Below, in pieces: positions 5,882 through 52,487 of a DNA stretch of 64,000 bases (position 1 is the stretch's first letter; each line of letters begins with the position of its first letter). The notes under the pieces were generated by a model. It made no database searches. It was not told where the DNA came from and was given only the letters and a program-made list of their open reading frames with translations. A program made the position numbers and the translations under genes. This stretch comes from Adineta vaga (Eukaryota > Animalia > Rotifera). The DNA is taken from positions 8,370,001 to 8,434,000 of the forward strand of contig CP075496.1 of assembly GCA_021613535.1 (NCBI GenBank), written 5' to 3'.

Positions 5882-6595
5882 AATCATAGTCGACCATATG
5901 AAATGTAAATACCTCAGAATAGCACGTGACATTTTTTCATTTTCTTTGCATTATTTTGTACTCATTCGTTTATTTGCGTTGAAAAAATAGAAAAAAATGG
6001 ACCTTGATACCCATTTTTCTTTTTCTATTGTTTTTTTTTATCACATTCATACACGTCATTTTACACCATATTGTGTGTTTGAAAGTGAAAAAGGTAAGTC
6101 ATATAACTATTCAAATATTTTAGACAGTTCATTAAGGATGAATATCTGTACTGTTATTTTACCGAATATCCAGTTATTTATATGAGGACGAGGAGTTAAT
6201 CAACAGACAGAAGATTTGATTGATTGTTATTTGCTCTTTAGTTTAAAGCGAATAGATCTATTGTTTGAGAGCGACATCCAACATATTCGCTACAATCTCA
6301 ATCTCAATCAAACATTGCAATCGCTGACTTCTGATTTGTTCAATATAGGAAGCTAATATTATACTTCCAAAATCATGACCTCATATCATATAGGTCCTAA
6401 TTTATGTTTAAGAATTACAATAACTGTGATTGCTAGCTGGAAAAATTAATATTGCGTTTGAAAATGTAGTTATAAGATAAGAATTTCTTTGTTTCTTTTT
6501 GCATTTATAAGAAAAAAAAAGATTGAATTTCAATGATTATCGTACTATACATATATTATTTCATTTTAGTATAATAGTAGTTCGAAAATAGAATT

Positions 6596-7981
6596 ATGGC
6601 TTCAAGACGTGTTTTAATCTTGGATGATTGTCAAATTCAATCGATTATTCATGAACATTCATGGTCAGATCTGATCGACGATGATGATGATATTGATTTA
6701 TATATTTTAACTAGTACTGGTGCATTATCTGAAAAAGATAAAGCTTGTTCACGTGTTCGTGCTTACAAAGAAATTGATCATCCAACAACAGATGGTACTC
6801 TTGAATTATGGTCATATGAAATGCATAAAAAACATTCATTTACACATGTTTATACAAAAAATGAAGATTTAATTATGCGTGCAGCTCATGTTCGTTCATT
6901 ACTCAATATTAAAACTGGCTTATTAGCAGAAACAATAGGAGCTTATCGTGAAAAAGTTGAAATGAAAAGAATTGCATCAGAAGGCGGTTTTCCAGTTCCA
7001 CCATTTGCTCGTTTATATGCACCAGCTGATCTAATTGCATTTATAGAAAAACAAGGGTATCCAGTTGTTGTCAAACCTACTCTTGGCTGTGCAACATCTG
7101 GTCTTAGTTTAATCAAATCTCCTGAAGAATTAGAAACATTTCTTTCGAAAAAATTATTTACATGCATTGATACTGATCAACGAATGGATTTAGTTGGAGA
7201 ATTTATGGTTGAAGGATATATGAAAGGACATATGTTTCATGTCGATGGTGTGGCAAAAGACGGTGAAATTATTTATGTATGGCCATTTAGTTATCTTCAT
7301 ACATGTCTTGGATTTTCTCAAGAAGGTACAGCTTATGGTAATTCTTCAATTCCAAAATCACATCCTCTTTATGATCGTTTATGTAAAACTGCACAACGTT
7401 TACTTAATATTTTACCATCTCCAATTGATGGCTTAGTATTTCATTTGGAATTATATGAAAATCTTGATCCAAATCGTCGACCTGATGATGATTTTATACT
7501 TTGTGAAATTGCTGCACGTGCGCCTGGTGCTTCTATTACTCATTTAATTGATTTATTATCATTTGAAGAAGATAATATACAACAATCATTTGCTCGATTA
7601 GATTTTTGTGTAAGCGTTTCATTATCAATTCCTAAATTGAAAGAACAAGATGAAAACAAAGTTGTTACGGATCTTATCATACCACGTAAACCAGGTAAAC
7701 TTATGTATATACCACGTGAATGTCCAATTCATAATCTTAAATATATACCAGTCGCAGATATCGATAAACCGACAGTTTATGAAAAATATGATGTCAACGG
7801 TTTGAATTCTGTTTGTCGATTTATAGCAGAAACAAAAAGTATGGAAGAGGGACAAGCATTAGTCGAAAAAGGTTTGGAATGGTTTGATAGTGTATTCATT
7901 AATACACCACTTGATGAACCATGTACAGTAGCATTAATTAAAGAACTACATCGTTATTTTCATAGGAAAATTTTTAATTAA
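6596..7981 (+). CDS. ATP-grasp ligase, NikS/L-amino-acid-ligase-like, intronless
   Basis: 461 aa. YREKVEMK, GYPVVVKPTLGCATSG, VEGYMKGHMFHVDG, FHLELY and CEIAARAPG are ATP-grasp motifs. Confidence 0.85.
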   Translation: MASRRVLILDDCQIQSIIHEHSWSDLIDDDDDIDLYILTSTGALSEKDKACSRVRAYKEIDHPTTDGTLELWSYEMHKKHSFTHVYTKNEDLIMRAAHVRSLLNIKTGLLAETIGAYREKVEMKRIASEGGFPVPPFARLYAPADLIAFIEKQGYPVVVKPTLGCATSGLSLIKSPEELETFLSKKLFTCIDTDQRMDLVGEFMVEGYMKGHMFHVDGVAKDGEIIYVWPFSYLHTCLGFSQEGTAYGNSSIPKSHPLYDRLCKTAQRLLNILPSPIDGLVFHLELYENLDPNRRPDDDFILCEIAARAPGASITHLIDLLSFEEDNIQQSFARLDFCVSVSLSIPKLKEQDENKVVTDLIIPRKPGKLMYIPRECPIHNLKYIPVADIDKPTVYEKYDVNGLNSVCRFIAETKSMEEGQALVEKGLEWFDSVFINTPLDEPCTVALIKELHRYFHRKIFN

Positions 7982-13194: not shown

Positions 13195-13486
13195 AGACAA
13201 GAATCTAGTCAATTTTTATTTATGCAAATATAAATGCTATAGATACATACATGTATGCAAGCTTTACTTTTTTAGTGATAGAAATTCAATTGCTGAATAT
13301 TTTATATTTGTTTTTATATATTTCGAATAAATAACTGTCGCGAACTTTAGTACGAACTTGAGTTTTTTTCTTTCAAGAGTACCTATTTATCTGTGATAGA
13401 GACATGAATAAATATCAAGGTGTGCGTGCATCTATTTTGATAATTTTATAGTTTTAAATAAAGATAACTTTTGACAGCCTTTCAAT

Positions 13487-14464
13487 ATGTGTTTCTTACT
13501 TGTTTTCATACTTTGTATTTACATATCCTATCGCGTATATCAACGTGTTTTCCCATCACCAAATATCAATCCAACTGGTAAATATGTATTAATTAGTGGT
13601 TGTGATACTGGTTTTGGTCATGGATTAGCATTAGAATTAGATAAACAAGGTTTCAATGTTCTTGCTGGTATCTACAATCCAAATAATGAAGAAACACTAA
13701 CAAAACTTCTCTCGCCGCGTGCTACTGTATTTAAATTAGATATAACTAAACAAGAAGATATTGATGCTGCTTATGAACTGATAAGTAATAAAACAAAAGT
13801 ACTACATGGATTAGTAAATAATGCGGGTGTTGGTGCTTGTGGATATATTGATTGGGTAACCGTAGATTCGATGCGTAAAGTAATGGATGTCAATTTTTTT
13901 GGACATGTAGCTATGACAAAAAAGTTTTTACCATTACTTGTGGCAAAACGTGATTCACGTGTAGTGAATATTTGTTCAGTTGCTGGTTATTTAGCTGCTC
14001 CAGGAATGGTTGCATATGCTACATCAAAATATGCTTTAGAAGCATTTTCTGACTGTCTTCGACGAGAAATGTCTGTATGGAATCTACGTGTTAGTATTAT
14101 CGAACCAGGTTTTATGAAAACACCAATTGTTGAAGGACATGATGCATTCTTACGTACATTATGGAATGGATTAACACATGATGTTCAAGATCGATGGGGT
14201 GAACAACATTTAGTCAAACAAATGGAAGAAATTTCAAATAATTTTCTAATAAAATATGCTGAGAATCCGAAAAAAGTTGTTAATGTACTAAAACATGCTG
14301 TTATGAATACACAACCATGTATTCGTTATCGACCTGGATGGCAATCAAGTATATTGATGTTTGCATTATCGCGAGGTCCAGCTTGGTTAGCTGATATTAT
14401 TATTGAAAAATTAAACACAGCTGCGGTTAATCCATCTGGTCTATGTACTCAATTACAAGATTAA
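13487..14464 (+). CDS. Short-chain dehydrogenase/reductase, RDH/17beta-HSD6-like (copy 1), intronless
   Basis: N-terminal hydrophobic anchor, SGCDTGFG, LVNNAG, catalytic YATSK, IEPG. Confidence 0.92.
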   Translation: MCFLLVFILCIYISYRVYQRVFPSPNINPTGKYVLISGCDTGFGHGLALELDKQGFNVLAGIYNPNNEETLTKLLSPRATVFKLDITKQEDIDAAYELISNKTKVLHGLVNNAGVGACGYIDWVTVDSMRKVMDVNFFGHVAMTKKFLPLLVAKRDSRVVNICSVAGYLAAPGMVAYATSKYALEAFSDCLRREMSVWNLRVSIIEPGFMKTPIVEGHDAFLRTLWNGLTHDVQDRWGEQHLVKQMEEISNNFLIKYAENPKKVVNVLKHAVMNTQPCIRYRPGWQSSILMFALSRGPAWLADIIIEKLNTAAVNPSGLCTQLQD

Positions 14465-18373: not shown

Positions 18374-18636
18374 TGACGTCAATAGAATAAAAATAACGTC
18401 AAAAGGTTTAGCTTTAGCCTTGACTTAAAACAATAGCTATGCATGACTTGCCGTTAGATCACATACCCAATAAGGATGGTGTGATCGAAAAAGAAAACAA
18501 AAGAAGATGATTTCTACTACACCTATTCATCTTCTTATGACGTTAATATTTCTCGAAACTTCATAAACCAATTCGTATTATCTTCACGCTTCGAAAGAGT
18601 ATATAAGGCGAAAGTTTCTCTGCATTAAACCATCAT
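18374..18636 (+). promoter_or_regulatory. Putative promoter with CRE, CCAAT, heat-shock element and TATA box
   Basis: TGACGTCA at 18374-18381; CCAAT near 18468 and 18568; TTCtcGAAacTTC at 18550-18562; TATATAAG at 18600; TCATT initiator-like motif ~30 bp further on; ATG at 18693. Confidence 0.55.
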
Positions 18637-18692
18637 TCGATCATATCTTATCCTTCTTCAATCCTATCATCAAATCAACGATTCAAATAACT

Positions 18693-19680
18693 ATGGCACG
18701 ATCAATTTTGGTTATGTGCATTGTGCTTTCAGCCTTTGTACACATGAATTTAGCTAATACATCGAATACAGTTGGTACACACATTCAAAATGGTGTTTCA
18801 CAAATGTTGGAAACAACTGGAAATCAGATTGATGGTCTCAAAGGAGCATTGAACACAAAAATTAGTGGCATTGCTGATGAAGTTAAACTCACACAAGTAA
18901 CAGCACTTGTTGGTAATCTTAAAAGCGCACTTGGAACACTTCTTTCAAATCTCCAAGGTGTTGCTACTGAAGCTATTTCGGCCGCTGTTGAAACCATTCA
19001 AAATGCTCTTGATGGACTTAAAGGCGTAGTTTCTAATATTGTCACTACCTTAGGCACTCTTATTTCAGCACTTACCGCTGTTGTTCAAAGTCTTCTTACT
19101 GCTGTTGGTGCAATCTTAAATTTACTTGGTAATATTCTTGGTGGTCTTGTTGACGCCCTCACCAGAACATTAGGCGGACTTTCTGTAAGTAAAACGAAGT
19201 TTTCTCTTTCTCATTCATAATATTTATATTTATTAATTATTATATAGAATACACTCGAACAACTCACTACCGCTCTTGTCCGATGGACTCGAAACTCCTC
19301 TTCACACTGCATTAACAACCATCGATGGCGCAGTTGGAACAATCATCGATTTTCTTGAAAATAATGTTATTGCAAAACTCAATACGTTAGACCAAACTGT
19401 TTCTGGCCTTTCAAACACAGTACTTCTTTTACTAGCACAAATCCAACATTTATTAAACGCTATTGTCAACAGTGTTCTCATGACACTCAGCCAAGCGTTA
19501 GTATCGATCCAACAAACTCTTGCCCAAGTTATGGACCACCTTCTTGAAACATTGACTGGTACACTCACCTCACTTCTTGGATGTACAGACTGTCTTGCTC
19601 GAAGCATCACTGGTGGAACTGGTCTTCTTGGTGGAACTGGTCTTCTCGGTCGACGTCGACGAAGTGCCGTCCGATACTAG
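18693..19680 (+). CDS. Secreted Leu/Thr/Gly/Ala-rich amphipathic helical protein of unknown family
   Basis: Signal peptide MARSILVMCIVLSAFVHMNLA. Exon 1 18693-19184, intron 19185-19247, exon 2 to 19680 with an apparent 1-nt frameshift near 19275. Ends GCTDC...GGTGLLGGTGLLGRRRRSAVRY. Confidence 0.75.
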
Positions 19681-20880: not shown

Positions 20881-23797
20881 TTAGGGACAAAGAGCTTTCG
20901 AACGACGAATGATAACACGAGTATCAATTGGAAATGAGAGATGATCACCAAGTTTCAGTGAATTTTGTTGTTGATCATGTTCATATACCAAAGGAACAGA
21001 ATTATGATGATCTTGCGCACTGATAACAACATCATAGTTCTCATTGCCAATGCTTAAATCAATAGAAAACCCTTGATATTTTATACCATGAAAAGCAAGT
21101 TTTTTTGCTTGGCTCGGCAGATGACCACGAGGTTGAAATTCTAATTGTTCTAAAGATAAACGAATACCACCATAACCGAATAGTACTGCCTGTAAAAATC
21201 CACCAGCACCTGTGATAAAATTTACTGCACCAACACCAGATCGAGCTTCTGTCCATACCTATTACAGAGAATAACAAGAATAAAACACGAAGGATATGAG
21301 AACTATGCAAAACTAACATTAAATGGCGGTCGAACATAGGTTTCATAGGAACGACGAAATAATTGTTGAGCTTTTTCAAAATCACCTAATTCAAGAAATC
21401 CAATGGAATGCATTGACCATGTCATAGCTGGTCCATCATCACGTGTCAAATGTTCATATGCTAAGAGATCATTTCGTCTTACTTCCTTACTCATTGGCCA
21501 CATCAATGGAAATCCTAATAGGACAACATCTGCTTGTTTGATCGTTGTATTTTCTAAATAAAATAAAAAACAAAGAAATAGATTTCTTTTGTGAGATTTA
21601 TTCTAATCAATTTATTTACTTAAATCAAAGTTTTCATATTCGAGATGATTGTTAGTTGAATTATCAAATGGGAAATGTAAATTAGATGCAATGTCCAGCC
21701 ATGTTTGAGGTAGATTCTTATCTGTGATACAACTAACATGATCAGCTAATCGAATAGAAAGTGATGCAACTGCATTAGTAAATACAGAATTATTTTTGAA
21801 TGGTTGAGCATCTTCATCAGGTGGTAAAACAGCTTGAGAAAAGCAATAAAGAAAAAAATCCAATTTATTATCAAATGGAAACTTACTCAATATTTCATAT
21901 TGTTTTTTCTCATTATTATAGATCGCTCTTGAACTCCAAAATCGAGCTGTTTCATAAATAAGTTCACCACCTAATTCATTCATTAACCACTGACGATTGC
22001 CTGTCACTGCAATATATTGTCTTGCTGCAAATGCAATATCACCTGTAATATGCATTTGATAGAGACGAACTTCTGGACAACAATCAGGTGTAACATCAAC
22101 ACCTGTTCTTGCACTTTCCCATGGAAATCTTACATAAAATAAATACATAATCACAAAATTAAGAATGCATTAAATACCTCCATCCTTCATAACCAAATAG
22201 CTTAGCATTATCAGAAGCAGAATCACGTAAAGCGATTCGATACGATAATATTTCTTTGGCTAATCTAAAGCAAATAATTAAACAAAACAATCCAATTCTT
22301 CTCTACAATGTTTGCATACTAACGTTGGATAGAAAAGAAGTACTGATGGAAACATCCATGTTTCTGTATCCCAAAATGAATGACCACCATAATCTTCGCC
22401 CAAAAGACCACCACGTGACAGACTACCTGGACTTAAACCATAGAATTGTTTATGTTCACTTTGAGTCGCTAATGGTGGAAGAGAACTTAGAATATAATAA
22501 AAAGCTGAATTAATTTGTCGTTGTAATTCGTCATCTCCAGTAACATGTATATGTCCATTAGACCAAACATCATTCCATCGAGATACATGTGATGATAATA
22601 CGGTATTGGGTTGTCGTTCTTCTGTTGCTATTGATAATATAATCATACTTATTTGTTTTTAAATTTACAAAGTTATAATTACCCAAATCAAAACTTCGCT
22701 TAGCTCGTGATTGATTCTCATCGATAGAAGTGACGAAAAGATATGTTCGAGTTGTTTCATCTTTATCAATTTCTAATCCATCGACAGGTATTGGTGTATA
22801 ATAAACAAATACAGACAATGGTTCGTTTTGAAATTGATTATTTTCTACTTGACGTGTTTTACCGGATAAAAGACTACAGAATATATACAGTCAAAATAGA
22901 TTTTAATCCATTACATACCACTTACATATATTCTTGTTCCCGATGTTCCACTTCTTTAAAATCAATATCAATACTTGTAAGTTGTTCAGCTACATCAATA
23001 GGTACATGAATATTCTTTCCTGAAAGAAATTTTTATCTTTAAATTAATCGAGAGTTTTAATAGAACCTGTAGATTTCAATCGAGTAAGTACGACATGAGC
23101 TAGTAATAATTCGGTATATTCTTGAGAAGCAAAAAGACATCGTTCAATTCGTATTTCATCATTTTCAAGTGTTTCAGTAAATGTTCCTAAGAATAGCATA
23201 AGAGAATGGAAAGAATTATTTTAATACAGAATACAAAACATCGTACCAGATGAAACATTCAACGTATATAAAGCTGAAGATGGATCTATTTGAAATTGCC
23301 AATTAAGTGTACTTGGAATTCGTGCACGATGACTGGTACCTTATATGAAAAAAAATTATAGAAGGAAAACAAAGTCACAAATAAAGATATTAAACAAACC
23401 ATTATCACCATTGTAAAGACCGTTCATATAGATAAAATCACTGAATACTACGGTAGCGATATGACCATTTCCAATATATGGTAGTATACGAAAATCGAGT
23501 GACGAACCATTCGAAGGTAATCTATATGTATATTATTATATTGAACCATATTTATTAAAAAAATTATGCTTACGTATTTGTACTAAATGTTGTAACAGAA
23601 TTAGAATGATCAATCGGAGCTGTTCGAATAAGAATTAATACTGTTGAAATCAATAAGAGAAAAAATAACATGATGATAGATACAATGATAAGTCGTATTT
23701 TGATGCTGTTGTTTTTATGCTCATAACGAGGATTAACATATAAATTATCTGTAAATAGTAATCCTTGAAGAGACTCACACTCATTATTCAACGACAT
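20881..23797 (-). CDS. PGGHG: Glycoside hydrolase family 65, PGGHG/acid trehalase-like, with N-terminal TM
   Basis: Multi-exon. YGLSPGSL, GHSFWDTETWMFP, FPWESARTG, HITGDIAFA, VLPPDE, IKQADVVLLGFP, DGPAMTWSMH, NFITGAGGFLQAVLFGYGG; ends ...SKALCP*. Confidence 0.85.
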
Positions 23798-24861: not shown

Positions 24862-26135
24862 TTAACCCTTGCACATTTTTTCGCAAGTTAAATCACCAAA
24901 AAATGGTATTAATTTCATCTTTTGAACTTTTCGTACAGATGAAATCATATCATCTATTGCATAGGTTTTATTGGGCCCATACGGTGATTTCATAATCGAA
25001 TCATGAATTGATTGCCGTCGTGAAGCTTGATGACCAAATCTCCACTCGGATGTTGCACTAATCATATGATAAAAAACAGCATTACTGTTATTAAATGGTG
25101 AAAAGAAAATTTCTGGTCCACATTTATCACATGGAGAAAAATTGCTTTTAATCCATTGAATATCATTATCAATTGAACCCCAAAAAAGATTTGTATCACG
25201 TCCGAGGAAAATTGTTTCTTTCATCCATGAAAATGATGCATTTTCATATTTTAAAAAATATTCAATTGTTTTACCACCGGAATCATAAGCTTGACCGTGA
25301 CGCAGCGTTTGTGATACATCAAAATTATCAATTGTATCGTATAATTGTGGTGCTAAACAAATAAATCCAATCCAACAGAAACGTGCAAATAATGCTGGAT
25401 GTTTTCGACAAACAATATCACGAGAATTTAATAATGTTGTCGAATCAAATGGACTTAATGGAAAAACATCACCATCCAGTAGAAGAATAGCAGTATTATT
25501 GCCAAGATAACGTTTTGCTCGTTGATCAATAGCCCAATTTACTACATTGGTATTTCATCGGATCCACCAGCGTTAGGTTTGTGTTTTTCAGTTGGAAAAC
25601 TATGCAGTTCAGCTTTATGAACCATAGCAACATTATGCATTTCTGCTGATAAAGATCCATCAACAAATAATTCAATAGCAACTAAATCTGTAGCAAGTTT
25701 TCGAATAAGATATAATTGTAGATCAGCTAGAACATGATGTTGAGTATGAAAAAGAAAGACAGCCAAAGTACTTGTTACACCATTATTACTATAAAGACGT
25801 GAAGTTGAAGGAGGTCTTTCGACTAGTAATAATGCTGGATCTAGAGTAGTTGGCCGAGCTGTGGATGCAGTAGTAGTAGTTGATGGAATATGTTTAATAA
25901 TAGTTGTCATATTCATCAAATAATATGAAGTATTAGCAATGATGGTAGTATTAGAAATAGCCATAAACAAATTGATGATTCGACTTCGATTAAAAATTTG
26001 ATAAAATACTTGAAAGGTATTTCGGAATTCATTACGATTGATTTGAAATAGTACATAATAAAATATAAAAGTAAATAATAATAATAATGCTGTTAATTTC
26101 AGATAACTATGACTACTGCCTTCCATCTGAAACAT
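24862..26135 (-). CDS. Putative GT-A-fold glycosyltransferase, type II membrane, intronless, with one frameshift near 25557
   Basis: N-terminal TM plus Thr-rich stem. Adding one base at 'tcc gat ga aat acc' gives a continuous frame ..NTNVVNWAID..ILLLDGDVFPL..FCWIGFICL..YDSGGKTIEYF..MKETIFLG that joins both ORF-track ORFs. DGD is a DxD motif. Confidence 0.65.
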
Positions 26136-29100
26136 AATGGGTTAAAAAAGAATAATTTTACCAAACTAGTTTAATCATCATGTTATTAATTATTCTCTCT
26201 AATAATCAATTTGATTCTAGACTATTTTAGAAGCATTTTTTTAAATTATTTTATTAAATTATTCTAAAAAATTAAGATACTGATAGAAAAATTTTACTAG
26301 AGTACATACCGATCGCATCGATGTTGTGATTTTATGCAAGACATACAATACCTGAGCAAATAAGAACTGCCAAAAACGCGTGAAATCGCTAAGAAAGTTC
26401 TGTCCGTTTTTATGTCAACCACAGTCTCCGTTTGTCAACCAAAAACATCGCAAATAAATATTCATAAAAAAGAGAGATTTTTCTCACTGTTCAGAATGTG
26501 ATCGTGGTTGGGTGAAAGTTTTAGAAGAAAATGACTGTTTACCCGCACACAAACGCTCAACATGAGGCGTGAGAACTCCTATTAACGAAAACTTTTCATG
26601 TTTGCGTGCAAAAACTGAAATATTAGTGTTTACACGGCCATTTATTTCCATAAACGCGTAGACAATCAAAAGTATCACTTTTCGAGCGTGAACACGCGTT
26701 TTCCCAAATTCTTGTCTGTTTGGGTACTAATGCTTTGGAACATGACAAAAATCTAACATAACAAATTCTAACTATAACATATTTGTTGTACAATAAAATG
26801 GCCGATAGATTTTCGTTTGAAGTATTTAGATGCATTGCATCACCAAAGAGAATCTGCTGTGAAAAATCGCGAAGCAAGTGATGCATACTTAATCGTTCTA
26901 AAGATCATTTAATCATAAAGATGCCATTTTTCATGTACGGAAAAAAACTATCGCAAATCATCGCATCAAAGCCATAGAAAATAAAAAAAATAGCGATAAT
27001 TTCAATGCGAACTGTTCTCTATATTATAGATTAAGAGTAGACAAGCATAGGTTCACGAACTCCATTTAAATGGACTAAAGAACTGTTCAAACAGTTCTTT
27101 TTAATAAACAGAACAATGTTACTCACCACCCGAAAGTATTATTTTTCGGCTTTTGAAATTGGTCGGATGTCGACTAGGTAGTGGCTTGAGTTTTGATTGA
27201 TCCGTTGTCTCTATATGAAGTAAACCATATTTCTTTGACTACGATGTTTGTCTCACTTCGTATAAACCATCAAGATGCCGTATAGAGTTCAATTTTTTTC
27301 AATAGCTGATCAGTTCTGAACTAGAACTGAGCTTTGTCGATCCCTATAATAGATTGCTCTTATCATTATTTGTTTTATGTTGAATCTATCTATGATATTT
27401 TGTATGTTTTTTTAGACAGAATAAGTTGTTCTTTCACTACTATCTTATATTGACAATGAGCTTACTACAGAGGAAAGAAAAGATTGAACTATGTGTATTT
27501 ATTCTTCCATAATATTTATATTGATATATTTTATATTGTCTCACGTTCAGTATTACGGTGTATTCTATGCTAGAGAATGATGGTGTTAAAAGCCAACAAA
27601 TTTTCTGTTGTCTTTTTGGAAAATAGATAATAGTTAATATTAACAATATGTAAGATTTTACAAAGAAAGCAAATCAGTAATTACGAGAATAGTATTTCTG
27701 ATATTAATTAAAAATCCTAACTTGAATCATGTATGATTTCGGTACGAAATACTTCTGTAAGTTTACTAAACGAGATTGAAGTAAAACTGATCATTTTTTT
27801 AAACAATTTTTATCGTAATTATGCGTGGCTAAGTCCAATTTTTGTCGTGATAGAAAACGTGTGCTGTAACGTTCGTCAATCAGTCGTCGGGATGTCAATG
27901 ATATTCCTCTTGTATTCTCATTAACTATATTGTGTTTATTAATCACCTTGGTCTTCTCCTCTATTTCTATGTTTTTTTTCATGCTCGTATAGATACAAAT
28001 GAAATACTGTAAGATTATGATGAACATCATCTTTTCGTTACACTTTTCTAGCTAATTCTACAATTAATTCCATCTAAAAACATATATTGTTCATTCCTTA
28101 CCCTTTCTTTTTGTTTCAATATAAGATAGTTATAATATTCTCTTGTAGTCAGGTCTACTAACGATATGATCGAACTAGAAAAGTTTTGAGTAAATGAAAT
28201 GTCAAACTGTTGATCCTCAATTTCTTTTCAGATGTTTGCTTATCATCATAAACTATTTCTCAATGTCTATTTCAATACATTTGTAATAACACATATGAAT
28301 CATTATTTTGAAATAGGAAGATTATTTTTAAAATGAGAAAACTATAACTACATAGATCGAATTCTTTATTCAATTGTTAAACTTACAAGTCATGTCTATT
28401 TTTCATAAACAATCTTATTCAATTGCATTTTGTCTTTGATTGTTTTCAAATAGTATCTGAGTAACTTTCTGAGGTTATAAAGGAAAAAATTCTATCATAG
28501 TTATCGTATATAGGCAAACAAAATGTGTAATATGAGCAAAAAAGAGTAAAGTATATTACTTTTTTCTTTTTAAATATATGAAATATAGAGAGAAAAAAAC
28601 GAGTTTACTAGAAAATATATACATTAGAATAATATATATCTGTGTGTGTGTGTTCTCTTGTCACTTTTTTAAAGCTCATTATTTTAAAGTCAGAGAAAAG
28701 AAAAGGACATTTGTATATCATGAAATTAGAGTACGCTTCATATTACAGACGAATGCAACTCATCAAAATAATGATATTTTTTTATTTTTCTTTGTTAAAA
28801 TATTTGATGTTTATAAACTAAAGAAAAATGGAATCAATTAAAGATCACTTCACAAACGTCAATCTTACTTCATAAAAACGGCGATGCTTTCATTTTATAA
28901 TTTGTTATTAAGTATTTCAAAGCTGTACACTCTTTATAAGATGTCACATCCACTGATGTTGATCTTTCAAATAAACGGTATATACAAACTTTGTGTTTTT
29001 TTCAAAAGATATTCATGATAAAGATAGTCTTGTTTACTATTGTTATTTTCTATAACAGTTTTTCAAATTGATACTTAAAAATAAATTGTTTTTTTTTTAA

Positions 29101-29394
29101 ATTAAAACAGCATATTGTTTATTCTGCGTAACAAGTAAGGAAACAATATGTAAAGAGAGTAGAAATTTATGTTGTTATGTATTAATAGCGATGATTGAAC
29201 TATGAATCTGAACGTTATACGACAAAAATTAGATATAAAATACATTCTTTTTATTGTCGGAGTAGACGTGTTAACTATAAAAATAGAGACTAGTTGTTTT
29301 TTATCATCAATGTTTACTGATATTAATATACTTACGAAAGATAACGAATGATATTTTACAGTACTTTCATCTGTCTGTTTCAAATACAGAAAGA

Positions 29395-30369
29395 ATGTTG
29401 ATATACATCATATTCATTTTTACCATTGTTATCAGTTATAAAATCTGTCAATACTATTTTCTATCACCAAATATCAATCCAACTGGTAAATATGTATTAA
29501 TTAGTGGTTGTGATACTGGTTTTGGTCATGGATTAGCATTAGAATTAGATAAACAAGGTTTCAATGTTCTTGCTGGTATCTACAATCCAAATAATGAAGA
29601 AACACTAACAAAACTTCTCTCGTCACGTGCTATTGTATTTAAATTAGATATAACTAAACAAGAAGATATTAATGATGCTTATGAACTGATAAGTAATAAA
29701 ACAAAAGTATTGCATGGATTAGTGAATAATGCTGGAATCGGTTATGGTGGACTTATTGATTGGATTACGTTAGAATCTATGCGTAAAATGATGGATGTCA
29801 ATTTTTTTGGACATGTAGCTATGACGAAAAAGTTTTTATCATTACTCATTGCTAAACGTGATTCACGTGTAGTGAATATTTGTTCTGTTGGTGGTTATTT
29901 AGCAACATCTGGAATGGCTTCATATTGTTCTTCAAAGTTTGCTTTAGAAGCATTTTCTGATTGTCTTCGACGAGAAATGTCTGTATGGAATCTACGTGTT
30001 AGTATTATCGAACCAGGTTCTATGCAAACACCCATGACTGATGGACTCTTGAATTATGTAGATAATTTATGGAATGAATTATCAACTGATGTTAAACAAC
30101 GATGGGGCGAAGACTTCTATAAATATTCAGTCCAACATTTTGTTTCTCATGGTTTAATGAAACGAGCAGAAAATCCTAAGAAAGTTATTAATGCACTTAA
30201 ACATGCTGTAATGAATACTAAACCATGGACACGCTATCGTCCAGGATTACAATCACCTTTATTTTTTCCATTATCATTAGGACCAACATGGTTAGTGGAT
30301 CCAATTTTAGCCATAGCATTACGTTCACCTAATCCACCAACTGGTCTACGTTATCAAATGCAAAATTAA
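29395..30369 (+). CDS. Short-chain dehydrogenase/reductase, RDH/17beta-HSD6-like (copy 2), intronless
   Basis: SGCDTGFG, LVNNAG, YCSSK, IEPG. Paralogue of 13487-14464. Confidence 0.92.
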   Translation: MLIYIIFIFTIVISYKICQYYFLSPNINPTGKYVLISGCDTGFGHGLALELDKQGFNVLAGIYNPNNEETLTKLLSSRAIVFKLDITKQEDINDAYELISNKTKVLHGLVNNAGIGYGGLIDWITLESMRKMMDVNFFGHVAMTKKFLSLLIAKRDSRVVNICSVGGYLATSGMASYCSSKFALEAFSDCLRREMSVWNLRVSIIEPGSMQTPMTDGLLNYVDNLWNELSTDVKQRWGEDFYKYSVQHFVSHGLMKRAENPKKVINALKHAVMNTKPWTRYRPGLQSPLFFPLSLGPTWLVDPILAIALRSPNPPTGLRYQMQN

Positions 30370-35599: not shown

Positions 35600-38584
35600 T
35601 TATTTGTTAATGAATAAACTGCATTGCAATTGTGCCAATAATATATTACGAACATTTGGATCAAGATTTGTAATCTTATTTGCTACTTCATCACATGCAC
35701 CTGACATACGTTCATTGAAAAATTGATATAACTCATCTTTAATCGTTTCTGGAGCATGAGTAATACGAAGACCTGTGGCAGCAGCATCTAATAATAATGG
35801 ATAATCATCCATAAAAACAGTTTTCACACCCCATTGATAATCAAGTCGTGCTTTTGCTGATTGACATCGGGCAACGAGACCAACAAACGACACCGGTGGT
35901 TCAACTAGGAATGGATGATTAATAATATCAGAAAGTTGAACTTGAATTTGAGCTAATTGTGATGTTGATACAGGTTGTCGAATATAGATAATCACTGATA
36001 AGGTTGATCCATCATAAGTGTAGCCATTTGTTGTTCCATCTTGACCATTGATCAATTCATTGAATGGTTCATATAAAATAGGAACATCATTGATGCGAAC
36101 ACTTGTAGCAGGAAATATACCTCGAAGTTGAATTTCATAAGAACGTTGAGTTGGAAATGAAGCAAAAGAACCTGTTGCAGGCGAAATAGCTGAGAAAAGA
36201 GAAAAAGATATTGTTAATTCATTATATAAAATGAACTTACTGAATTCTAAAGTATTGTTCGATACAGCATAATCAAAACGAGTAATGACACTTGTTTTAC
36301 GTGAAGGATCTTGATATGCTGTTGTTATTCCATCATCGTCATAAACAGATCCTCGTCCTTTCGATGAACCACCGATTAATGTATACAAAAGTAAAGCTTG
36401 TGGAATTTGTTGTGCACGTCCAATTCGATCTCGACTTGATCGTGGTTCAGGTAAAAGTGGAATAATTGAACCAGCTTGAGCATAAACTGGCATTTCATCA
36501 ATAGTAAAAGATTTCGTTGAAGATCCTGTAATAGAAACATCACCTGTAAAAAAATTAACCCATTCAAAATTAGGTGGAAACCAAATAGGCCAGTTTTCGA
36601 CAAGGCCCGAATTAGGATTAACAGGTTGACTAATAGGTGATACAAAATATTTGGACCAAAGAAATATTGATTTGAATATGTATAAGCTTCATCATATTCT
36701 GGATAATTATAATAAACAGGTAGAACGACAGATAAACCAGAATCATATGTACGTCTAGCAGCTGTATAAATATAAGGTATAAGTGCTTGACGTAATCGAG
36801 TAAATCGTGCTAAATTATTTTGATAGATCCATGGAAATGTCCAAAGTCGTCGATCATTATTAGCATTTTTAGTACAATGTGTTCGAAACATGGGTGAAAA
36901 TGCACCCCATTGAACCCATCGAGTATATAATTCAGGATCAGGCTCTTGTGTATGTCCGCCAAGATCATGACTCCAAAATCCATAACCAACATTAGCTGCT
37001 GTAGCTGTGAAACGTGGCTGAAATGAAAGTGTATCCCATGATGGTACTACATCACCAGAGAAACCAACTTGATAACGATGATTACCAAGACCACCCCATC
37101 GATGAAGAAGTGCTGGACGATTTTTTCCAAAATATGGATCCGTAAAAAAGACATGATTAAGCCAAAATGTCGGATTTGTATAAGGTATATCATTCATCCA
37201 ACCTTCTTCACCTTGTTGCCAATCTAACCACCATAGATCAATACCAGCTTGTTGAAGTGCATGAAGAACAATATTTGCCCATGATGAAGTAAATTTTTTA
37301 TCAGTCACATTAAATGGTACATAATGTTTTGTTGTAGGATCAATGCCCATTGCTTCTGCCATTTCTTGATATTTTTCTTCCCATGATTGAATACCTAGAT
37401 AAAATTGTACGTCAATTAAATGACTGATATAAAAGAAATTCGTTATTACCTGATGCAGGATGAACATTTAAAGTATTTTTCAAACCTAATTGTTTGCACC
37501 ATTGAAGAAATTTTTGATGATTTGGAAATAAATGTTCATCAAATGTATATCCTGACCAGCCAATCGTTTGTCCGGCTTGATCTTTTGTACCATTGGATGC
37601 TAATTTATAAAATGTAATATGCCAATCCATATCAGTTACAAGTACATCTAATGGTATATCATGTTGAATATATTCTGTAATAACTTGTCTTTCTTCATAT
37701 TCAGCATATGCCCAATAACGACTGAAAAATACACCAAAAATATAACGTGGTGGAAGTGGAATTGAACCAGCCAGACGAGTAAATTCATATAAAGCTTGAG
37801 AATAAGCTCGTCCATGACCAAATAAATATAAATCTTGTTGTGCTTGTGATGAATAAAAACATGCTGATGGACTTTCAAAACAACATCCCCGAAGTTCACA
37901 TTCATGTTGATCAGTATTATTGGATGAACCACAAGTTCGACGTTCATTTACAGGTATTACTTGACAAAGAGATGGATCAGGTGGTGAATATTGTTTATTG
38001 ATAATCCATGGCCATTGTGGATCATTATCTAATTGTGGTTGATGTGTATCATCGACGAGAGCATAACCACGACGAGAAATAACACCATAAGTACAATGTA
38101 AATCATTACGAGGTTGATTTCGACAATCTAATTCTAATTTTGAATCACGATTTCCATCTAATGTACGTAATGTTCCGAGAAGATTACCATTATATTCTTC
38201 ATTCGGTATAGCATTCCATACAACAGTTTCTCCTTTAGCAGCATTAACTTTAACAGTTACACGAATATTATGTTGACTGAATGTTGTTATACTATTTCGT
38301 AAATATTCTAATGAAATATAATTAGTATTGATTCGTAAATGAGTATCATTTCGTGTTACATTATAAACTGGTGGAGTTGGCTGAATTTGACGAGATTGTA
38401 CTAGCCATGTTTTACCATCAACAAATTCTTTTGTTGGTGACCATTCTAAACGAATAAGACGTGTTGATAAGATCGTAAATCGAGCTTGACCTTCGTAGAC
38501 TATTGCTGAAGGATCTGCTAATAAAGTTTCACCAAATGTTGCTGTAGTCAACACTGACAACCATAAGATAAATAACACCACCAT
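35600..38584 (-). CDS. Secreted glycoside hydrolase family 31 (bacterial-type alpha-glucosidase/xylosidase) with internal trefoil domain; 1-nt frameshift near 36645
   Basis: Signal peptide. ARFTILSTRLIRLEWS, GNLLGTLRTLD, SRYWAY, DMDWH, WWLDWQQG (nucleophile), HRYQVGFSGD, WSHDLGGH, YDDDG. Introns near 37396-37449 and 36191-36240. Confidence 0.9.
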
Positions 38585-39074
38585 TCCTATTTAAGACAAA
38601 GGAGAGAAATGTTACCTTGAAATGATTCTCTACAGATGATAAGTTGCTCCTTTTATCAAGCAGCCCAGAATAAGTAAGTAAAAATAATATTTACTAGATC
38701 GCACACGTTTTTTTCTCATATCTCTTCATACTCTATAAGTAAAGCTTATCAATTTCTAATAAAAGACTGAACAGATATATTATTATCTGACGATGATTTC
38801 ATTGACTATAGATTTTTTATCAATACAAAATGTATCATATATATTTTCTCTCTCCTCATGTTTCATTCATCCACTGATAGACAGAAGATGATGAAATTAA
38901 GAAAGAAAAGTAAAAACTGAACGTTATATAACTCGAAAGAAACAATTATGATTGTTTTACTTATATATGTAAAGGACGAAAATGTTCTATTGAATAAATC
39001 AAAATATAAGAATTAGAAACAAGAACAAATATTCGTGTAGAATAATAGATGGTAGTAGTTTACTATGTGTTTTC

Positions 39075-39568: not shown

Positions 39569-40149
39569 GAAGTTCGATGTTTCAACGAAAGATAAACGTT
39601 TTATATCTTTTCTGACAAAAATAAAATATCTATAATAGAAACGAAACTTTTTAAACTATAGGCAGACAGAGTAAATACATCACTTTGATATGTTTTATTT
39701 GCTTTTCGAGGTATGTTCGACGTAGAAGAGCAACATAAAAGAAAAGAGAAAGACATGATGAAATACATAGGAAACTGCATTTTTTCCCAGTGAAGAATAT
39801 AGACGATTAACCAAACAATATACATATCAATGATAAGATTGACGTTAAATTTTCATGAAAAACCGTATCAATCAATATGCTTTTGTCAGTATTCTTTGAA
39901 AATTGTCAAGTAAAATCGAACATTCATTCGAACTGGAATGACATGTTACTGGATTTGATATATTCAATGTACTACGGTAATAACAAGGAACTTTATCAAC
40001 ATGCAACCTCTGTATCATTGCCTTTACAGAGTAGATCTGTCTGGGAAGTTCTTTTTTAACTTCGGATAGATGCAATCAAAATTAATTTTAATTATCTTTC
40101 GTCAATAGCAAAGACAACATATAAGTCTATTTATTTGATTATTTTCAAA

Positions 40150-40550
40150 TTAACAAACTCGAGCTGAATAAGATGGATGGAAAGTAGTACCACCAATATT
40201 ATAACAAAGTGATCGTGGACCATTTGATTCTTGTGTAAAGATATCACCCCATTTATTAACGAGACGTTGATTTTCACAACGAACTTTCATCCATGCAACA
40301 CCATCTGGGAATTCCATTTCACGTGTTTTACCAGCATAGATATTTCCACTAGCTAATGTTAATGGACCTAAACTATCTTTGATTTCAATAAAACATCGAG
40401 CAACATATGCACCATTTGATGTTATACTGATTTTGATACCATGTGATCCAATAACTATAAAAAAAATATTCGTCTTCTTTTCCTATCAATTTAAATTTGA
40501 ATTACAATAAACTTACCGAGAAGAGCAAGAAGAGCTACTAATTTCAACAT
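40150..40550 (-). CDS. 112-aa secreted protein: stand-alone cholesterol-dependent cytolysin domain-4-like fold (absent from ORF track)
   Basis: Exon 1 40550-40517, 62-bp GTAAGT..ATAG intron, exon 2 40454-40150. MLKLVALLALLVIGSHG-IKISITSNGAYVARCFIE...KVRCENQRLVNKWGDIF...LCYNIGGTTFHPSYSARVC. GAYVA and GTTxxP motifs are at the expected ends. Confidence 0.75.
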
Positions 40551-41532
40551 TTTCTTTGTCGGAATCTTTTGGTCTGATCAAATTGTTTTCTTAAAGTTTT
40601 TTAGCAATATATAACCAACGGATGCCGGCAAACATCACGCCATTCTCATTTCATCATCTGTTATATTTCTCATTTCTATATACATTCTCATACTCTCTCT
40701 CCCACTGATATGTTTTGACGAAATCAATAAGATAAGAAAAAAAACAATTGAGTATCACTAAACTTATCGATCATTGATTGAATATCTCTATAGAATAAAA
40801 TGAAAATAGATTTATCCCGTTCTAGAACATGTCATTGGAATAGACTAAAATTGGAGTAAATGTATCCATCAGAGCATCCATATTGCGAAGCAAATGCACT
40901 GGTCATGGTAAAGAAGATGGAGATAATAATGTAGAAACAGTCAATAGCGTTAGTTTTAAAGAGAGTTTTATAGGTGCAAGTAATTATATATAAAGTGATG
41001 AAGACATTTCTAGATACGATAGAGCAGTTTATGGAAAATAAGTGTATATAGTTTACATATTTATAAACAAAAAACAACAAGTATGGTTGAGCAAAGATCA
41101 GGCACTGGTGGAACAGAGACTGTATGGGTAAACGTGCACAATCTTTGTATACAATGTTCATTTATCTCCGAAAATATCCGTGAACGAAAATGACGTCAAC
41201 AGATGGCGTCAGGTTTGCGCTAAAACAATTGTTAAAAGTTCGACAAACAGAAGAACGATTTAAATTCGTATCATGATTCTTTCAAATATATACTTAACAG
41301 TTTATCAAATGAAAACAAGTGGATATACATATACGCTTGTAACTTCTAAAGAGAACAAGAAAGACTAACCATATTTTTCTTTTGCGTTCGTTATCTTGAA
41401 ACGAATAAACAGTAACACATCGATTTAACTATTCGTATATACAAACAGAGAAAAAAACGAATCGTGCTAAGACTATATATGAGAGATAATCATCTCAAAT
41501 ACTCGAACAATTAAAGTATATTATTGAAACCA

Positions 41533-44188: not shown

Positions 44189-45522
44189 TTGATTTATGTT
44201 GTTTTCTAAGAATAATAATCATATGCTTATATATCTTTGTTTAGGATGAAAATAGATCAAATGAGCAACAATTAACAGTTACAGTATCACGTATAAGTTC
44301 ATTACCAAATCAATTATTTTCACTTCGAAAAAATAGTAGGAGTAGTACTTGTATTGTTCCAATTCATCAAATGTAAATTTCCGTTGAATTTATTAAATAA
44401 TTTAGTCCTTTTATCTACAGATAAAAATTACAATATTTTCCTTTGATTTACTATTAGAAATTCAGAAAATTAATAACTTATCGATATAATTTTCTTTCTT
44501 ATTAAATCGTTTGATCCAATCAAAGAAAGAAAAACGAAACTTAGTTATGATATTTATTTTATAAAGACGTCTATAGAGAAACGCATACAGTTTCATATAT
44601 GTCATTTATTAAAACCAAGGACAAAACGAAAAAATCCGTCAAGGAAAATTGAATCGATTTGCTGCTTTTTTTACTTGTTAATGTTCATCATCAATATCAT
44701 TTTATGTTAATTGATCGAGACAAAGAAAATTATACACAATCAGTTCATTTTTACATATTTATACATTGATAGTTTTATATCTCATAATTCGAAGAAAAAT
44801 ATTCAAAAAGAAACATTATCACTGCCTATAATCAAAAATATTTCAAATAGATCAATATTTTCATTTATCAACGTATATAACCGACAATAGTCTTGTTTTT
44901 CTCTTGATATTATCTACCAAGAAAAATCATTGATAGTTTTCTTTTCAATATGAAAATTCTCGATTGAATGAATGTGAAGATGATGCAATCATCTTTAAGG
45001 ACAGACAGTAGTTATCCATATTTCTTTACTCTCTAACCGACGGTATATGAAATGATAATGATGAAAATCATTTTTTAATTTATACATATATATGTTGTTT
45101 ATCTATTTATCATATCAGTGGTTTTTTTACATGTATATATATATATCAAAAGTCAAAAAACAAAATAGTCAGTGACAAACGACCTTGAGTCAATAAATGT
45201 TTGTTTATATCATCAAAGAACGAATGAAGGAACGAAAAAAGAAAACTGCGGAGAGAAGCATCGATGCATGACATAAATACAAATGCATGTAACGGCAGCT
45301 CTCTGTTTTTTTTGCTTCACTAGTGGATATATATGTTTATGTGAAATACGAAGGTGAAGTTTTTTGAGTGATATATCACCATTCTAATATTTTATTCGGC
45401 ATATATTACAAAAATCTATTCAGTCAATTCATACCTGTATATGTGTTTACGACGGCTATTCACATAGGAAAAAGCAAAGCAATAGAAAGGGCAAACTACA
45501 TATTCGATAACAAAACTAAAAA

Positions 45523-48500
45523 ATGGCCACAACAACGAATATAAGTGCTGAAAATACCGATATCAGTGGCGATAATAAAAATGTAAATGAGGGTAATATT
45601 AATGATTTAGCATATGTGGGAAAAAAAGACACATCATCATCGGAACAATCAGTTACCATCAACGATCCAGTAAAAGTAACGATTACAGTTGTACAAGCCA
45701 ATAGTGATGATAAGACACAAGCACAATCATCATCAACAGCTACAAGTAATAGTAATGATTTGGCAAATCTAGGAAAAGCTGATGGATCATCATCGTCTCA
45801 ATCGATTACTATCAATGATCCTGTGAAAGTAACTATTACAGTAACACAAGCTGCTTCTGGAGATAAAAAATCAGAACAAACGAAAGCATCAACAGTGCCA
45901 TCAGTAGCTGAAGTAACAACAACACAAACGACAACAACAACAACTGTAGAAGAAGTATCTGATCCAATAACAATATCAAAAAAATCAGATAAACCTGCTA
46001 GTGAAGAAACAACATCAACACCAGCACCAATTGTCACAGAACCTGCTACAGACGCGGAGAAAAAGAATGAAACAACAACAACAAGTAGTGTATCAATTGA
46101 AGAAGTCAAAGAATCGACACCTGCCGATGAAAATAAAAAAACAGAGGAAAAAACAACAACATCAGCTGACACTTCGGTTGACGAGAAAAAAGAACCTGAA
46201 GCAATGCTAGCTACCCCGGCTCCACCTGCTGAAGAGATCAATAAAGAAGAAACAAAGACTGAAACCACCACAGAAGAAAAGAAAGACGAAGCACCTGCAC
46301 AGCTTCTCCGGCTCCACCTGCTGAAGAGATCAAAAAAGAAGAAACAAAGACTGAAACCACCACAGAAGAGAAGAAAGACGAAGCACCTGTACTAGCTTCT
46401 CCGGCTCCACCTGCTGAAGAGACCAAGAAAGAAGAAACAAAGACTGAAACCACCACAGAAGAAAAGAAAGACGAAGCACCTCTACTAGCTTCTGCGGCAC
46501 CTCCTGCTGAAGAGATCAAAAAAGAAGAAACAAAGACTGAAACTACTACTGAAGAAAAGAAAGACGAAGCACCTGTACTAGCTTCTCCGGCACCGCCTGC
46601 TGAAGAGATCAAGAAAGAAGAAACAAAGACTGAAACTACTACTGAAGAGAAGAAAGACGAAGCACCTGTACTAGCTTCTCCGGCACCTCCTGCTGAAGAG
46701 ATCAAAAAAGAAGAAACAAAGACTGAAACTACTACTGAAGAGAAGAAAGACGAAGCACCTGTACTAGCTTCTCCGGCTCCACCTGCTGAAGAGATCAAGA
46801 AAGAAGAAACAAAGACTGAAACCACCACAGAAGAGAAGAAAGACGAAGCACCTGTACTAGCTTCTCCGGCTCCACCTGCTGAAGAGATCAAGAAAGAAGA
46901 AACAAAGACTGAAACCACCACAGAAGAGAAGAAAGACGAAGCACCTGTACTAGCTTCTCCGGCTTCACCTGCTGAAGAGATCAAGAAAGAAGAAACAAAG
47001 ACTGAAACCACCACAGAAGAGAAGAAAGACGAAGCACCTGTACTAGCTTCTCCGGCTCCACCTGCTGAAGAGATCAAGAAAGAAGAAACAAAGACTGAAA
47101 CTACCACAGAAGAGAAGAAAGAATCACCATCTGACGCTTCAAACAAAACTGGAGAGGCCACGGCCGCAAGTTCTTCTCCCGAACAGAAGAAAGAAGAAGT
47201 ATCTCAAGCAACTTCTTCTGCGCCAGCCACTCAGGAAGCTCAAAAAACAGAAGAAACAACAAGTGTTACTTCTACCGAAACCAAAACAGAATCCGAACCT
47301 GCATTAGCTTCTTCCGCACCCGATACAAAAGAATCTAAACCATCGGGAGAATCTACAGCTACTACTGACGATTCTAAGAAGGAAGAAACCCCACAGTTAC
47401 AAGCTGCTCCAGCTTCTGAGAAAAAGGAAAGCGATCAGAAGGATGTTGACTTTCCAATAGTGAAAGACAGTTCGAAAAATCTCACTGACTTTCAACGTAA
47501 AAAAGCTGAATACTTTTTCAATATTAATTTAGGTATGTTATTGTATATTTGCAACGAAGTGATTACTAATTACTGAAAATATTTTCTCAATTTGTTTTAG
47601 ATATTGAAAATAAAAAACACGTAACATGGGATGAAGTTGAATTTTATTTATTGGTAAGAGAATAATTAAAAACAATTTCATAAATATTTCTATTGGTTGG
47701 ATTGTTCTATTAGTTTCATGTCACAGCGTCGGGAAAAGAGGGTGCTGATGGTGGTGAATTAGAAAAACGATTAAGTCGAGCTGCACGTGCTCTTTGGGAA
47801 CATATTCACGATCAAGTACCATCATCTGATGGAAATCGTGATAAAGTAACATCAGAACAATTTCTTGATACATGGGCTAGCCTCATTGATTACATTATTA
47901 AACATGGTAAAATACCACCTTTAGTTCAAGATTTAGTCGATCTTGGTTTCGAGTTATACTCAGAAAAAGATGGTGATGATAAATCACCATCAATTCCTGC
48001 ATCATCATTTGAACGATTATTTCAAAAGATGAATCTTGGTCCTCCTTATGCTTCAATGGCACATAAATTTCTCACAGAAGTATGATATATTAATTTTCTT
48101 GTTTCATATTTATATTTGTCTTCTTTTTCAATTTAGAACGGTACAAAACCATTAGATGCCGACAAAGTTAATTCTATTGTTCGAGCAGTGATTACATCGT
48201 CTGATGATGGACATAATTCACACTTTCTCTTACCTGGCTTCTTCAAAACGATTACAAATAAACCTCAAGAGAAAGACACGAAAGAACAAACACCATCGGC
48301 AGATAAAGGTATTTTGATTTTATGTGTTATATATCCGAAAGAGATATAGGACATTTTTATGATAGTTGTTTTTTGACTTGTTAGTATATAAGAGAGAGAG
48401 AGAGAAAGATTCTAATGAAGAAATAAGAAAAATAATTACCAAATGCAATTAATTCTTGTATTTTTTATGTTGATTTTATATTTCTAATAACTTCTACTAT

Positions 48501-51548: not shown

Positions 51549-51947
51549 TTATGATGATTCAATAGATTCGAGTATTTTAATTGGTGCATTTGGATTAACT
51601 GAAGCAATATGATCATTATGCACATCAAATCTCCACTCAGTTACTGGACATGTTACACCATCAAATGGTTGTTCCAATGAAAATGACTGTTCTTCTGTTT
51701 GAATATCTAATCGAGTAAGAATTTTACGACAAGTAAATGTAGCTTCAGGTGTTGGTTGATAATCTCGTTCGGGTATATAAGCTCGACCACCAGAATCAAG
51801 TTTTACCGAAATTGTTTCTTCATATTGATGATTTGAACCTGCTGAATAATGTATTGTGCATAATACTTGCTTATCTGTTTTATTCAATATAACTCCAGCA
51901 TAAACATGTTGTGGTGCTACACATGAAACGGATGAAGTAAAAGACAT
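51549..51947 (-). CDS. Hypothetical 132-aa beta-rich protein, intronless
   Basis: Clean ORF with normal codon usage, an aaacaATG context and a TATA-like run upstream (~52040). No signal peptide; no family recognised. Confidence 0.7.
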   Translation of the reverse strand: MSFTSSVSCVAPQHVYAGVILNKTDKQVLCTIHYSAGSNHQYEETISVKLDSGGRAYIPERDYQPTPEATFTCRKILTRLDIQTEEQSFSLEQPFDGVTCPVTEWRFDVHNDHIASVNPNAPIKILESIESS

Positions 51948-52487
51948 TGTTTATATTTTTTGTTTTTCGTTCGTTAATTTCACTTCAGATACTATGAAAT
52001 ATGTCTGAAGTTATATCAGATACATTCATCAATGAATATATATAACTTTCTACCCACCCGAAAGACAACAACAACAGCAATGATGAATAAGAGAAAAAAA
52101 CGAAGTATTATTAATACATTTCACGATAAAGTAATGAATAGTCATGAAAATTGGTTTCTTTTCTTTCTTTCTTTCATTCTTTCTCTACTTTCTTAAAGAA
52201 TCTGTATCGTACGTGTTGACTTTGAAATAACATCGATTCTGACATTATGAATAAAAAGAAGAAAACGAATCTTATTATATTAATTATAACTATTATCTTA
52301 TTCTTATGTGATATAAATAATAATCATTGTTCTTTTTTTTTATCTCGCATATATTTAATTTAATACGAGATTAAGAATACTAAAAAAAAATCTTCATATG
52401 TATTAGGAATGCGAGTAATATGAGTGACGTTGATGGTGATGATGATAATGATGAATATACAAAAAAAAGCAAATGTCGAATGAGTGC

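Follow-up and report, generated by a model that had tools for sequence, protein, structure and literature searches.

A small gene of the bdelloid rotifer Adineta vaga encodes, as a protein on its own, a homologue of the part of the cholesterol-dependent cytolysins (CDCs) with which these toxins bind membranes. It lies on the minus strand at positions 40150 to 40550 of the window, by which we mean the whole 64,000-nucleotide stretch of DNA analysed here. Judged by its predicted fold and by a profile of intermediate relatives, the protein is a homologue of CDC domain 4 that falls below the Pfam threshold. A first-pass annotation of the bare sequence had proposed this kinship, and the evidence set out below upholds it; the same annotation had seen in the gene a bacterial toxin domesticated and remodelled by the rotifer, and that part gives way to a different picture, of a conserved bdelloid protein drawn from a wide family of free, tandem and fused modules.

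Gene structure, transcript and neighbourhood

The gene opens with an ATG at 40550 and its stop codon ends at 40150 (minus strand, as for all parts of the gene below). Its first coding exon (40517..40550, 34 nt) supplies 11 codons and one base of a predicted signal peptide; a GT..AG intron of 62 nt, in phase 1, falls inside the hydrophobic leader (40455..40516); and the second coding exon (40150..40454) contributes the end of the leader, a 95-residue domain and the stop. The resulting product of 112 residues consists of a hydrophobic leader of 17 residues, its cleavage after residue 17 being a by-eye reading of the sequence, and of the domain itself, and is predicted to be secreted. The split leader, the length of the domain, the three motifs quoted in the first-pass annotation and the four cysteines (15, 54, 78 and 95) are all borne out. 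So is the attribution to an animal, for the spliced product is P0108 (UJR32217.1), a 'hypothetical protein' of Adineta vaga, identical at 95 of 95 domain residues.

This is a real, spliced, two-exon gene. The joint 40454/40517 is present in contigs of four (X3, X6, X10 and X12, under four study codes) of eight runs that are RNA by guess only, none being on record as RNA, and the spliced transcript that had been anticipated is thereby observed. The contig of X15 is continuous through intron and flanks, without the joint, that of X11 enters the intron, and those of X1 and X13 end before it; the flanks of the gene are uncovered in X1, X3 and X6, and contig depth is unsuited to ranking expression. 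One spliced contig of 417 nt covers both exons and therefore represents a transcript without room for pore domains, whose absence had been claimed earlier. The 5' untranslated part (40551..40572) is bounded by contig ends, at 40572 in X3 and 40570 in X6, which cannot fix the start of transcription. The 3' part (40070..40149), set by a contig end of X1 at 40070, contains AATAAA at 40135-40130 and a single poly(A)-like loose end at 40086 (X6).

A metagenomic relative (L001) also carries an intron, at the same codon position, and its dN/dS against the window gene is 0.21, so the rotifer gene is not a product of chance. Synonymous sites differ by about 0.34 between the two, and upstream blocks of 14 nt and 8 nt are identical in both (40617-40647 of the window, minus strand; 31-62 of L001), which likely marks a promoter element.

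The gene, which has a spliceosomal intron, sits in an animal genome and has GH31, ankyrin, MFS/sugar transporter and adaptin genes as neighbours; it lies between the GH31 glycosidase, which has an internal trefoil domain (35600-38590, minus strand), and the MFS transporter, and no second copy occurs within the window. Elsewhere in the window are a GH65 glycosidase (20881-22658, minus), a pair of similar short-chain dehydrogenase genes separated by 16 kb (13475-14464 and 29287-30369, both plus) and a leader-bearing Leu/Thr/Gly-rich helical-repeat protein with a basic motif at its end and a sub-threshold Pfam match (18567-19680, plus). A weak ATP-grasp match (E 4e-5) falls in an uninterrupted frame of 466 residues (6581-7981, plus), which may be another foreign gene. 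A long Glu/Lys/Thr/Pro-rich frame with about 14 near-perfect 25-residue repeats and no Pfam match stands at 45520-47576 (plus), AT skew is strong at 46-50 kb, and two further coding-looking open frames have no Pfam match (51549-51950 and 24862-26141, both minus).

Fold, binding tip and disulfides

Single-sequence methods do not reach the cytolysins. Pfam returned no family for the protein at E <= 10, and Thiol_cytolys_C (PF17440, gathering cut-off 23 bits), put forward at the outset as a check, failed to match either the protein or any of the ten orthologues that make up alignment A1; a PDB sequence search with the single protein found no match, and a profile of A1 reaches a cytolysin at E 0.85 only. 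With a profile of 30 relatives that include no full CDC (alignment A2), 26 of 29 matches among PDB sequences are CDC sequences, the best at E 4.8e-9 and with the motifs in register. The AlphaFold model made from the same 30 relatives (pLDDT 95) predicts eight strands across the mature domain (P0001; 40153..40437). In Foldseek, another check suggested beforehand, this predicted model gave 32 matches at E <= 0.001, all those listed being CDCs, with a best E of 6.5e-7 and TM scores by query of 0.70-0.77. A wide structural search (VIA) aligned all 95 of its 95 residues with domain 4 of pneumolysin (Z 13.8, rmsd 2.0, 20% identity); CDCs span Z 13.3-13.8 there, and the next fold reaches 8.9. A model from the ten orthologues alone (pLDDT 73) places CDCs at Foldseek ranks 1-31 and, in the wide search, at Z 10.4-10.8 against 7.6 for the next fold.

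Profile alignment to suilysin and listeriolysin sets the equivalents of the loops L2, L3, undecapeptide and L1 at the domain's tip. Loop L2 (residues 7-12, 40402..40419) carries G-A-Y-V and, like L3 (residues 31-36, 40330..40347), is supported by conservation as well as by alignment. In the L1 equivalent (residues 82-88, 40174..40194), Thr85-Phe86 (40180-40185) occupies the site of the Thr-Leu cholesterol motif of CDCs. The CDC undecapeptide is quoted as ECTGLAWEWWR (PMC11416283, accessible in part). Its rotifer equivalent (residues 55-63, 40249..40275) is two residues shorter, has no Thr-Gly and one aligned Trp, and is polar and basic, with a mean hydropathy of -1.3 against -0.27 in other family domains; a polar Gln-Arg-Leu-Val is a feature of the bdelloid loop. 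The alignments thus sustain the earlier claim that the undecapeptide is altered and Thr-Leu changed to Thr-Phe, though not the equation of the middle-motif cysteine with that of the undecapeptide, because Cys54 is a strand residue lying 3-5 residues before that position.

The four cysteines are likely to form two disulfides, Cys15-Cys54 (40393-40395 and 40276-40278, spanning 40276..40395) and Cys78-Cys95 (40204-40206 and 40153-40155, spanning 40153..40206), because the members of each pair co-occur across the family, and the stabilisation foreseen by the first-pass annotation is to that extent supported. Cys15 and Cys54 are both present in six other domains, singly in three and four, and both absent from 82, and the Didymodactylos orthologue P0011 has lost the two together. 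For Cys78 and the C-terminal cysteine the corresponding counts are 58, 6, 1 and 20, the pair being present in 58 of 85 scorable domains.

Orthologues on named records come from six bdelloid species (Adineta vaga, A. ricciae, A. steineri, Rotaria magnacalcarata, R. socialis and Didymodactylos carnosus), share 56-100% identity and form a clade with support of 100/100. Residue 86 is Phe in 10 of 13 orthologue rows and Tyr in the other three. Of the 28 positions in the four tip loops, whose CDC counterparts touch the membrane, 17 are invariant among 17 orthologues; of the 67 remaining positions 6 are, and the loops at the opposite end keep 1 of 21. These counts are to be read with the knowledge that tip positions were picked after the alignment had been seen, that the orthologues are related and that a structural role may account for some of the invariant Gly and Pro. 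On this comparison of sequences the gene is conserved across bdelloids, and the surface that appears to be under selection is the binding tip.

A wide family and the origin of the rotifer gene

Searched against 1.84 billion representatives, the orthologue profile gave 89 matches, of which at least 41 fit PF17440 at E <= 0.01 and 21 reach its cut-off; only four carry pore domains. Forty-seven of the 89 are no longer than 150 residues (fragments among them), and 20 of the 42 longer ones hold two or more copies of the domain. Partners in fusions include papain-like and astacin-like proteases, ricin-B, B-lectin, tectonin, PASTA and TPR domains and a Tc B-like protein. One set of fusions (P0065, P0055, P0014, P0020, P0062) places the module in a Tc B-like (SpvB/TcdB) protein, an FAD oxidase and papain-like or astacin-like proteases, the proteases having three to five tandem copies; identification of P0055 as a cholesterol oxidase was dropped, the Pfam match being weak (E 0.0013) and without support from PDB sequences. 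Three matches that resemble Ig-repeat false positives (P0034, P0076 and P0040, the last a probable false fusion match) were excluded, and with eight near-duplicate ids also removed the count of other domains fell from 106 to 97.

Across these 97 domains, positions 85-86 read Thr-Leu in 50 and Thr-Phe in 12, hence Thr followed by Leu or Phe in 62; Phe stands at position 86 in 27, and the Thr-Gly of the undecapeptide is kept in only 19. Streptomyces niveiscabiei has a free protein of this kind with a leader (WP_409124008.1), and hydrophobic leaders occur on seven more (P0043, P0048, P0053, P0063, P0052, P0027, P0044), some of which may come from other eukaryotes. Clostridium plasmids encode further members such as WP_003377876.1: two plasmids, of C. 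novyi and C. botulinum (W01, NZ_CP029459.1, and W02, NC_015418.1; loci L002 and L003), have 12 and 8 profile matches, in arrays of small, diverged 'hypothetical' genes, four of which in L003 have the C2 toxin genes no more than 7 kb away. None of the eight plasmid copies examined keeps Thr-Leu or Thr-Phe, their L1 motif being degenerate; the motif is therefore apparently dispensable for the fold, and its retention in rotifers suggests use.

Rotifers themselves have other members (A. steineri P0022, Didymodactylos P0079 and P0093, Brachionus calyciflorus P0050). A feature search with P0022 returned as its top cluster (score 0.91) 112 mostly Mucoromycota proteins of about 118 residues, 89% of them eukaryotic; these are probably free domain-4-like proteins in fungi, a lead from that search. 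Its structure search gave PF17440 clusters, including clusters of lipase, F5/8 and PF17440, and also M4 peptidase clusters. The profile at E <= 1e-5 found nothing in 401 sampled genomes of one phylum (that of G001), a set without a positive control, phages gave no match to the family, and the one match from a single-protein scan of bacterial genomes, among the matches listed, was to the leader only and is a false lead. On these sequences the free state and the altered motifs are traits of the family, which is wide, patchy and little studied, and we found no tested function for any of its members.

That breadth leaves the idea of a toxin domesticated and remodelled within rotifers unsupported in its original form, since the features thought peculiar to the rotifer protein are common to free modules outside the group (Thr-Phe in 12 of 97 domains, and the Streptomyces niveiscabiei protein). 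A toxin cut down within rotifers is probably not the origin of the gene, because the free state, Thr-Phe, the shortened loop and both cysteine pairs are already found among the modules of the family. The distribution of the family makes it reasonably likely that an already free bacterial module was transferred. Such a transfer would be old, predating the split of Didymodactylos from Adineta and Rotaria. The bdelloid proteins form a separate clade that in our trees is not sister to any full CDC; trees on 100 columns give no supported bacterial sister, most relatives having no taxon on record, and a quick tree of 143 rows sets the orthologues near CDC-like proteins, which a tree of 56 rows does not. 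The domain is too short for the donor or the number of acquisitions to be named, and old eukaryotic descent of the gene is also conceivable.

Function and comparison with known systems

We tentatively favour, at somewhat less than an even chance, a role for the protein as a secreted, non-lytic binder of sterol-containing membranes. Exported through its leader, it would dock tip-first, Thr85-Phe86 with Ala10 and Val12 reading the sterol while Arg58 and Lys62 meet the head groups; binding would be shallow, reversible and weak, because the Trp-rich insertion loop is here short and polar, and no pores would form. In the gut or in secretions it may settle, as a soluble tag, on the membranes of foreign eukaryotes (food cells, fungal spores, hyphae) and so mark them to be cleared or digested. 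Fusions of the module to proteases, lectin domains and a Tc B-like protein are as expected of a targeting module. The gene is not named in the accessible part of a study of infected bdelloids (PMC11258130); its supplements (15 of the 16 readable files, the main expression table excepted) gave no relevant match to cytolysin terms or the locus number, and one supplement file each of PMC12220480 and PMC10809525 held nothing on it.

The perfringolysin work bears on this reading from both sides. Seven interface positions have been randomised in that toxin (PMC9057304, in part). Of these, Ala401, Val403 and Thr490 are identical in the rotifer protein and Leu491 is Phe; Glu458, Thr460 and Arg468 are different or missing. 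The match of Ala401 and Val403 to the G-A-Y-V motif is taken from spacing. In a second study, mostly of haemolysis by the full-length toxin, the WVVTRAF variant indicates that Phe491 still allows cholesterol to be bound specifically, ergosterol is bound by CDCs less strongly than cholesterol, and Thr460 of the undecapeptide is indispensable even when the motif is altered (PMC11416283). The active Phe491 variant had compensating changes (PMC11416283, in part), which the rotifer protein does not have. Counting against a sterol ligand are the missing counterpart of Thr460, a loop whose polarity exceeds that of the other family domains, and the loss of cholesterol binding in the leafhopper RdCDC9 described below.

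The same polar loop lends itself to another ligand. In the main rival account, which we consider somewhat unlikely, the ligand at the tip is a glycan or something else polar on a surface, and the protein is a small, secreted, lectin-like factor directed at microbial walls, at food particles or at mucus of the animal itself. It is the main rival because the tip is polar and aromatic and the family keeps lectin company: Tyr11, Trp63 and Phe/Tyr86 are invariant or nearly so together with Asn56, Gln57, Arg58 and His87, ricin-B, B-lectin and tectonin domains appear in fusions with relatives, and tandem arrays occur. Mixtures of aromatic and polar residues are common in sugar-binding sites, and among the fold matches are pneumolysin entries titled as sugar or mannose complexes (4zgh, 4qqq). 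Against it, conservation of motifs is highest in the two loops through which CDCs recognise sterol, with Thr and Leu or Phe in 62 of 97 other domains, and no lectin is among the top fold matches. Alternatively the sterol might be the rotifer's own, the protein acting as a carrier or membrane coat in sterol traffic, egg coats or desiccation, an account we regard as distinctly improbable. Bdelloids have many sterol C24-methyltransferase genes (PMC10692144, in part), so their sterols may differ from cholesterol. A single conserved orthologue group with a dN/dS of 0.21 and an invariant tip fits a fixed ligand of self better than an arms race. Domain 4, however, has a surface site and is not known to have a pocket, and E. 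coli is not known to contain sterols. Rearing of cultures on E. coli alone (PMC11258130, in part) argues against any need to scavenge sterol from the diet.

Two further proposals were made at first sight of the sequence. The protein is very unlikely to be the targeting subunit of a two-part pore-former that draws its pore subunit (CDC domains 1-3 or MACPF) from a gene elsewhere. Such systems with a separate lipid-binding subunit do exist, as in pleurotolysin A/B, and the OlyA/PlyB entry appears among the structural matches, at Z 6.1 only. A partner would bind away from the tip, and yet faces and loops there are the least conserved (1 of 21 invariant); moreover, none of the 39 long frames scanned with Pfam, of 52 long frames listed in the window, has MACPF or Thiol_cytolysin, and on the two Clostridium plasmid stretches no annotated cytolysin or MACPF lies near the free copies. 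A decoy that covers accessible sterol or caps the oligomers of bacterial cytolysins is, in our estimation, highly improbable. Isolated, engineered domain 4 does bind sterol without forming pores (PMC9057304, PMC11416283, both in part), but a polar insertion loop that binds weakly would be at a disadvantage against a Trp-rich one. Free copies occur in bacteria and, by the feature search only, in the mostly Mucoromycota cluster, and the family is therefore not an animal invention for defence.

Returning to the favoured binding of sterol membranes, a bolder and on balance unlikely extension holds that domain 4 is a single application of a portable module, a 'eukaryotic membrane address', and that the Thr-Phe tip of rotifers tells ergosterol from their own sterol. 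Bacteria, fungi and rotifers would on that account employ the module free, in tandem or fused to enzymes, bdelloids having fixed a disulfide-locked free copy; were it true, the animal would be secreting a pattern-recognition protein aimed at fungal membranes, and nature would have supplied a probe selective for sterols.

Set beside known systems, the rotifer protein is not a cytolysin toxin: domains 1-3 (PF01289) and the undecapeptide are absent, and Thr-Leu is replaced by Thr85-Phe86. A search for longer forms, weak in itself, found two proteins, neither of them close or named as rotifer. With domain 4 of CDCs (pneumolysin 5cr8, listeriolysin O 4cdb, perfringolysin O 1pfo; PF17440) it shares the eight-strand sandwich over all 95 residues, and its G-T-T-x of L1 and G-A-Y-V of L2 are in register; unlike them, it is about 14 residues shorter (95 against pneumolysin 361-469), its loop is without the undecapeptide cysteine and two of the three tryptophans, and it has four cysteines in two likely disulfides and a eukaryotic leader with an intron. 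Its free, tandem and fused relatives resemble it in size, shortened loop, the pair of Cys78 and C-terminal cysteine and, often, a leader, whereas the bdelloid loop is more polar and the second cysteine pair is fixed in bdelloids.

The nearest animal precedent is found in leafhoppers. Their RdCDC1-9 are described (PMC13670155) as genes of bacterial origin in an animal genome, with introns and leaders, encoding proteins of 490-680 residues that keep the cytolysin body, are nested among Gram-positive CDCs and evolve fast. Some copies have lost Thr-Leu, cholesterol binding and toxicity, and RdCDC9, with L1 and undecapeptide altered, has lost cholesterol binding altogether (PMC13670155, in part). 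The rotifer gene is likewise a CDC-related gene with intron and leader in an animal genome, and differs in encoding the binding domain alone and in being well conserved. Perfringolysin domain 4 probes and ribosome-display variants offer an engineered parallel, a non-lytic, isolated domain in which an aromatic residue at 491 is tolerated in some contexts (PMC9057304, PMC11416283, both in part); they keep the Trp-rich undecapeptide and Thr460, whereas the rotifer protein is natural and without both.

In the full-text literature, a body that takes in few subscription journals, no description of free domain-4-like proteins or of the rotifer gene was found. Foreign genes are common in bdelloids, and animal domestication of a CDC is already published for leafhoppers, which tempers the significance of one more case. 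For rotifers, the gene nonetheless provides a small, conserved, unannotated and predicted secreted protein that is easy to express and is a candidate immune or feeding factor. Domain 4 has hitherto been regarded as what aims a toxin and, in engineered form, as a probe for cholesterol. Free copies that occur as a natural family, with varied tips and stabilising disulfides, supply proteins with which to ask what sets sterol specificity and whether the older job of the domain was general targeting. From its sequence, this undescribed rotifer gene would encode the binding end of a CDC as a free, predicted secreted protein and belong, as a single branch, to a family that is broad and unstudied.
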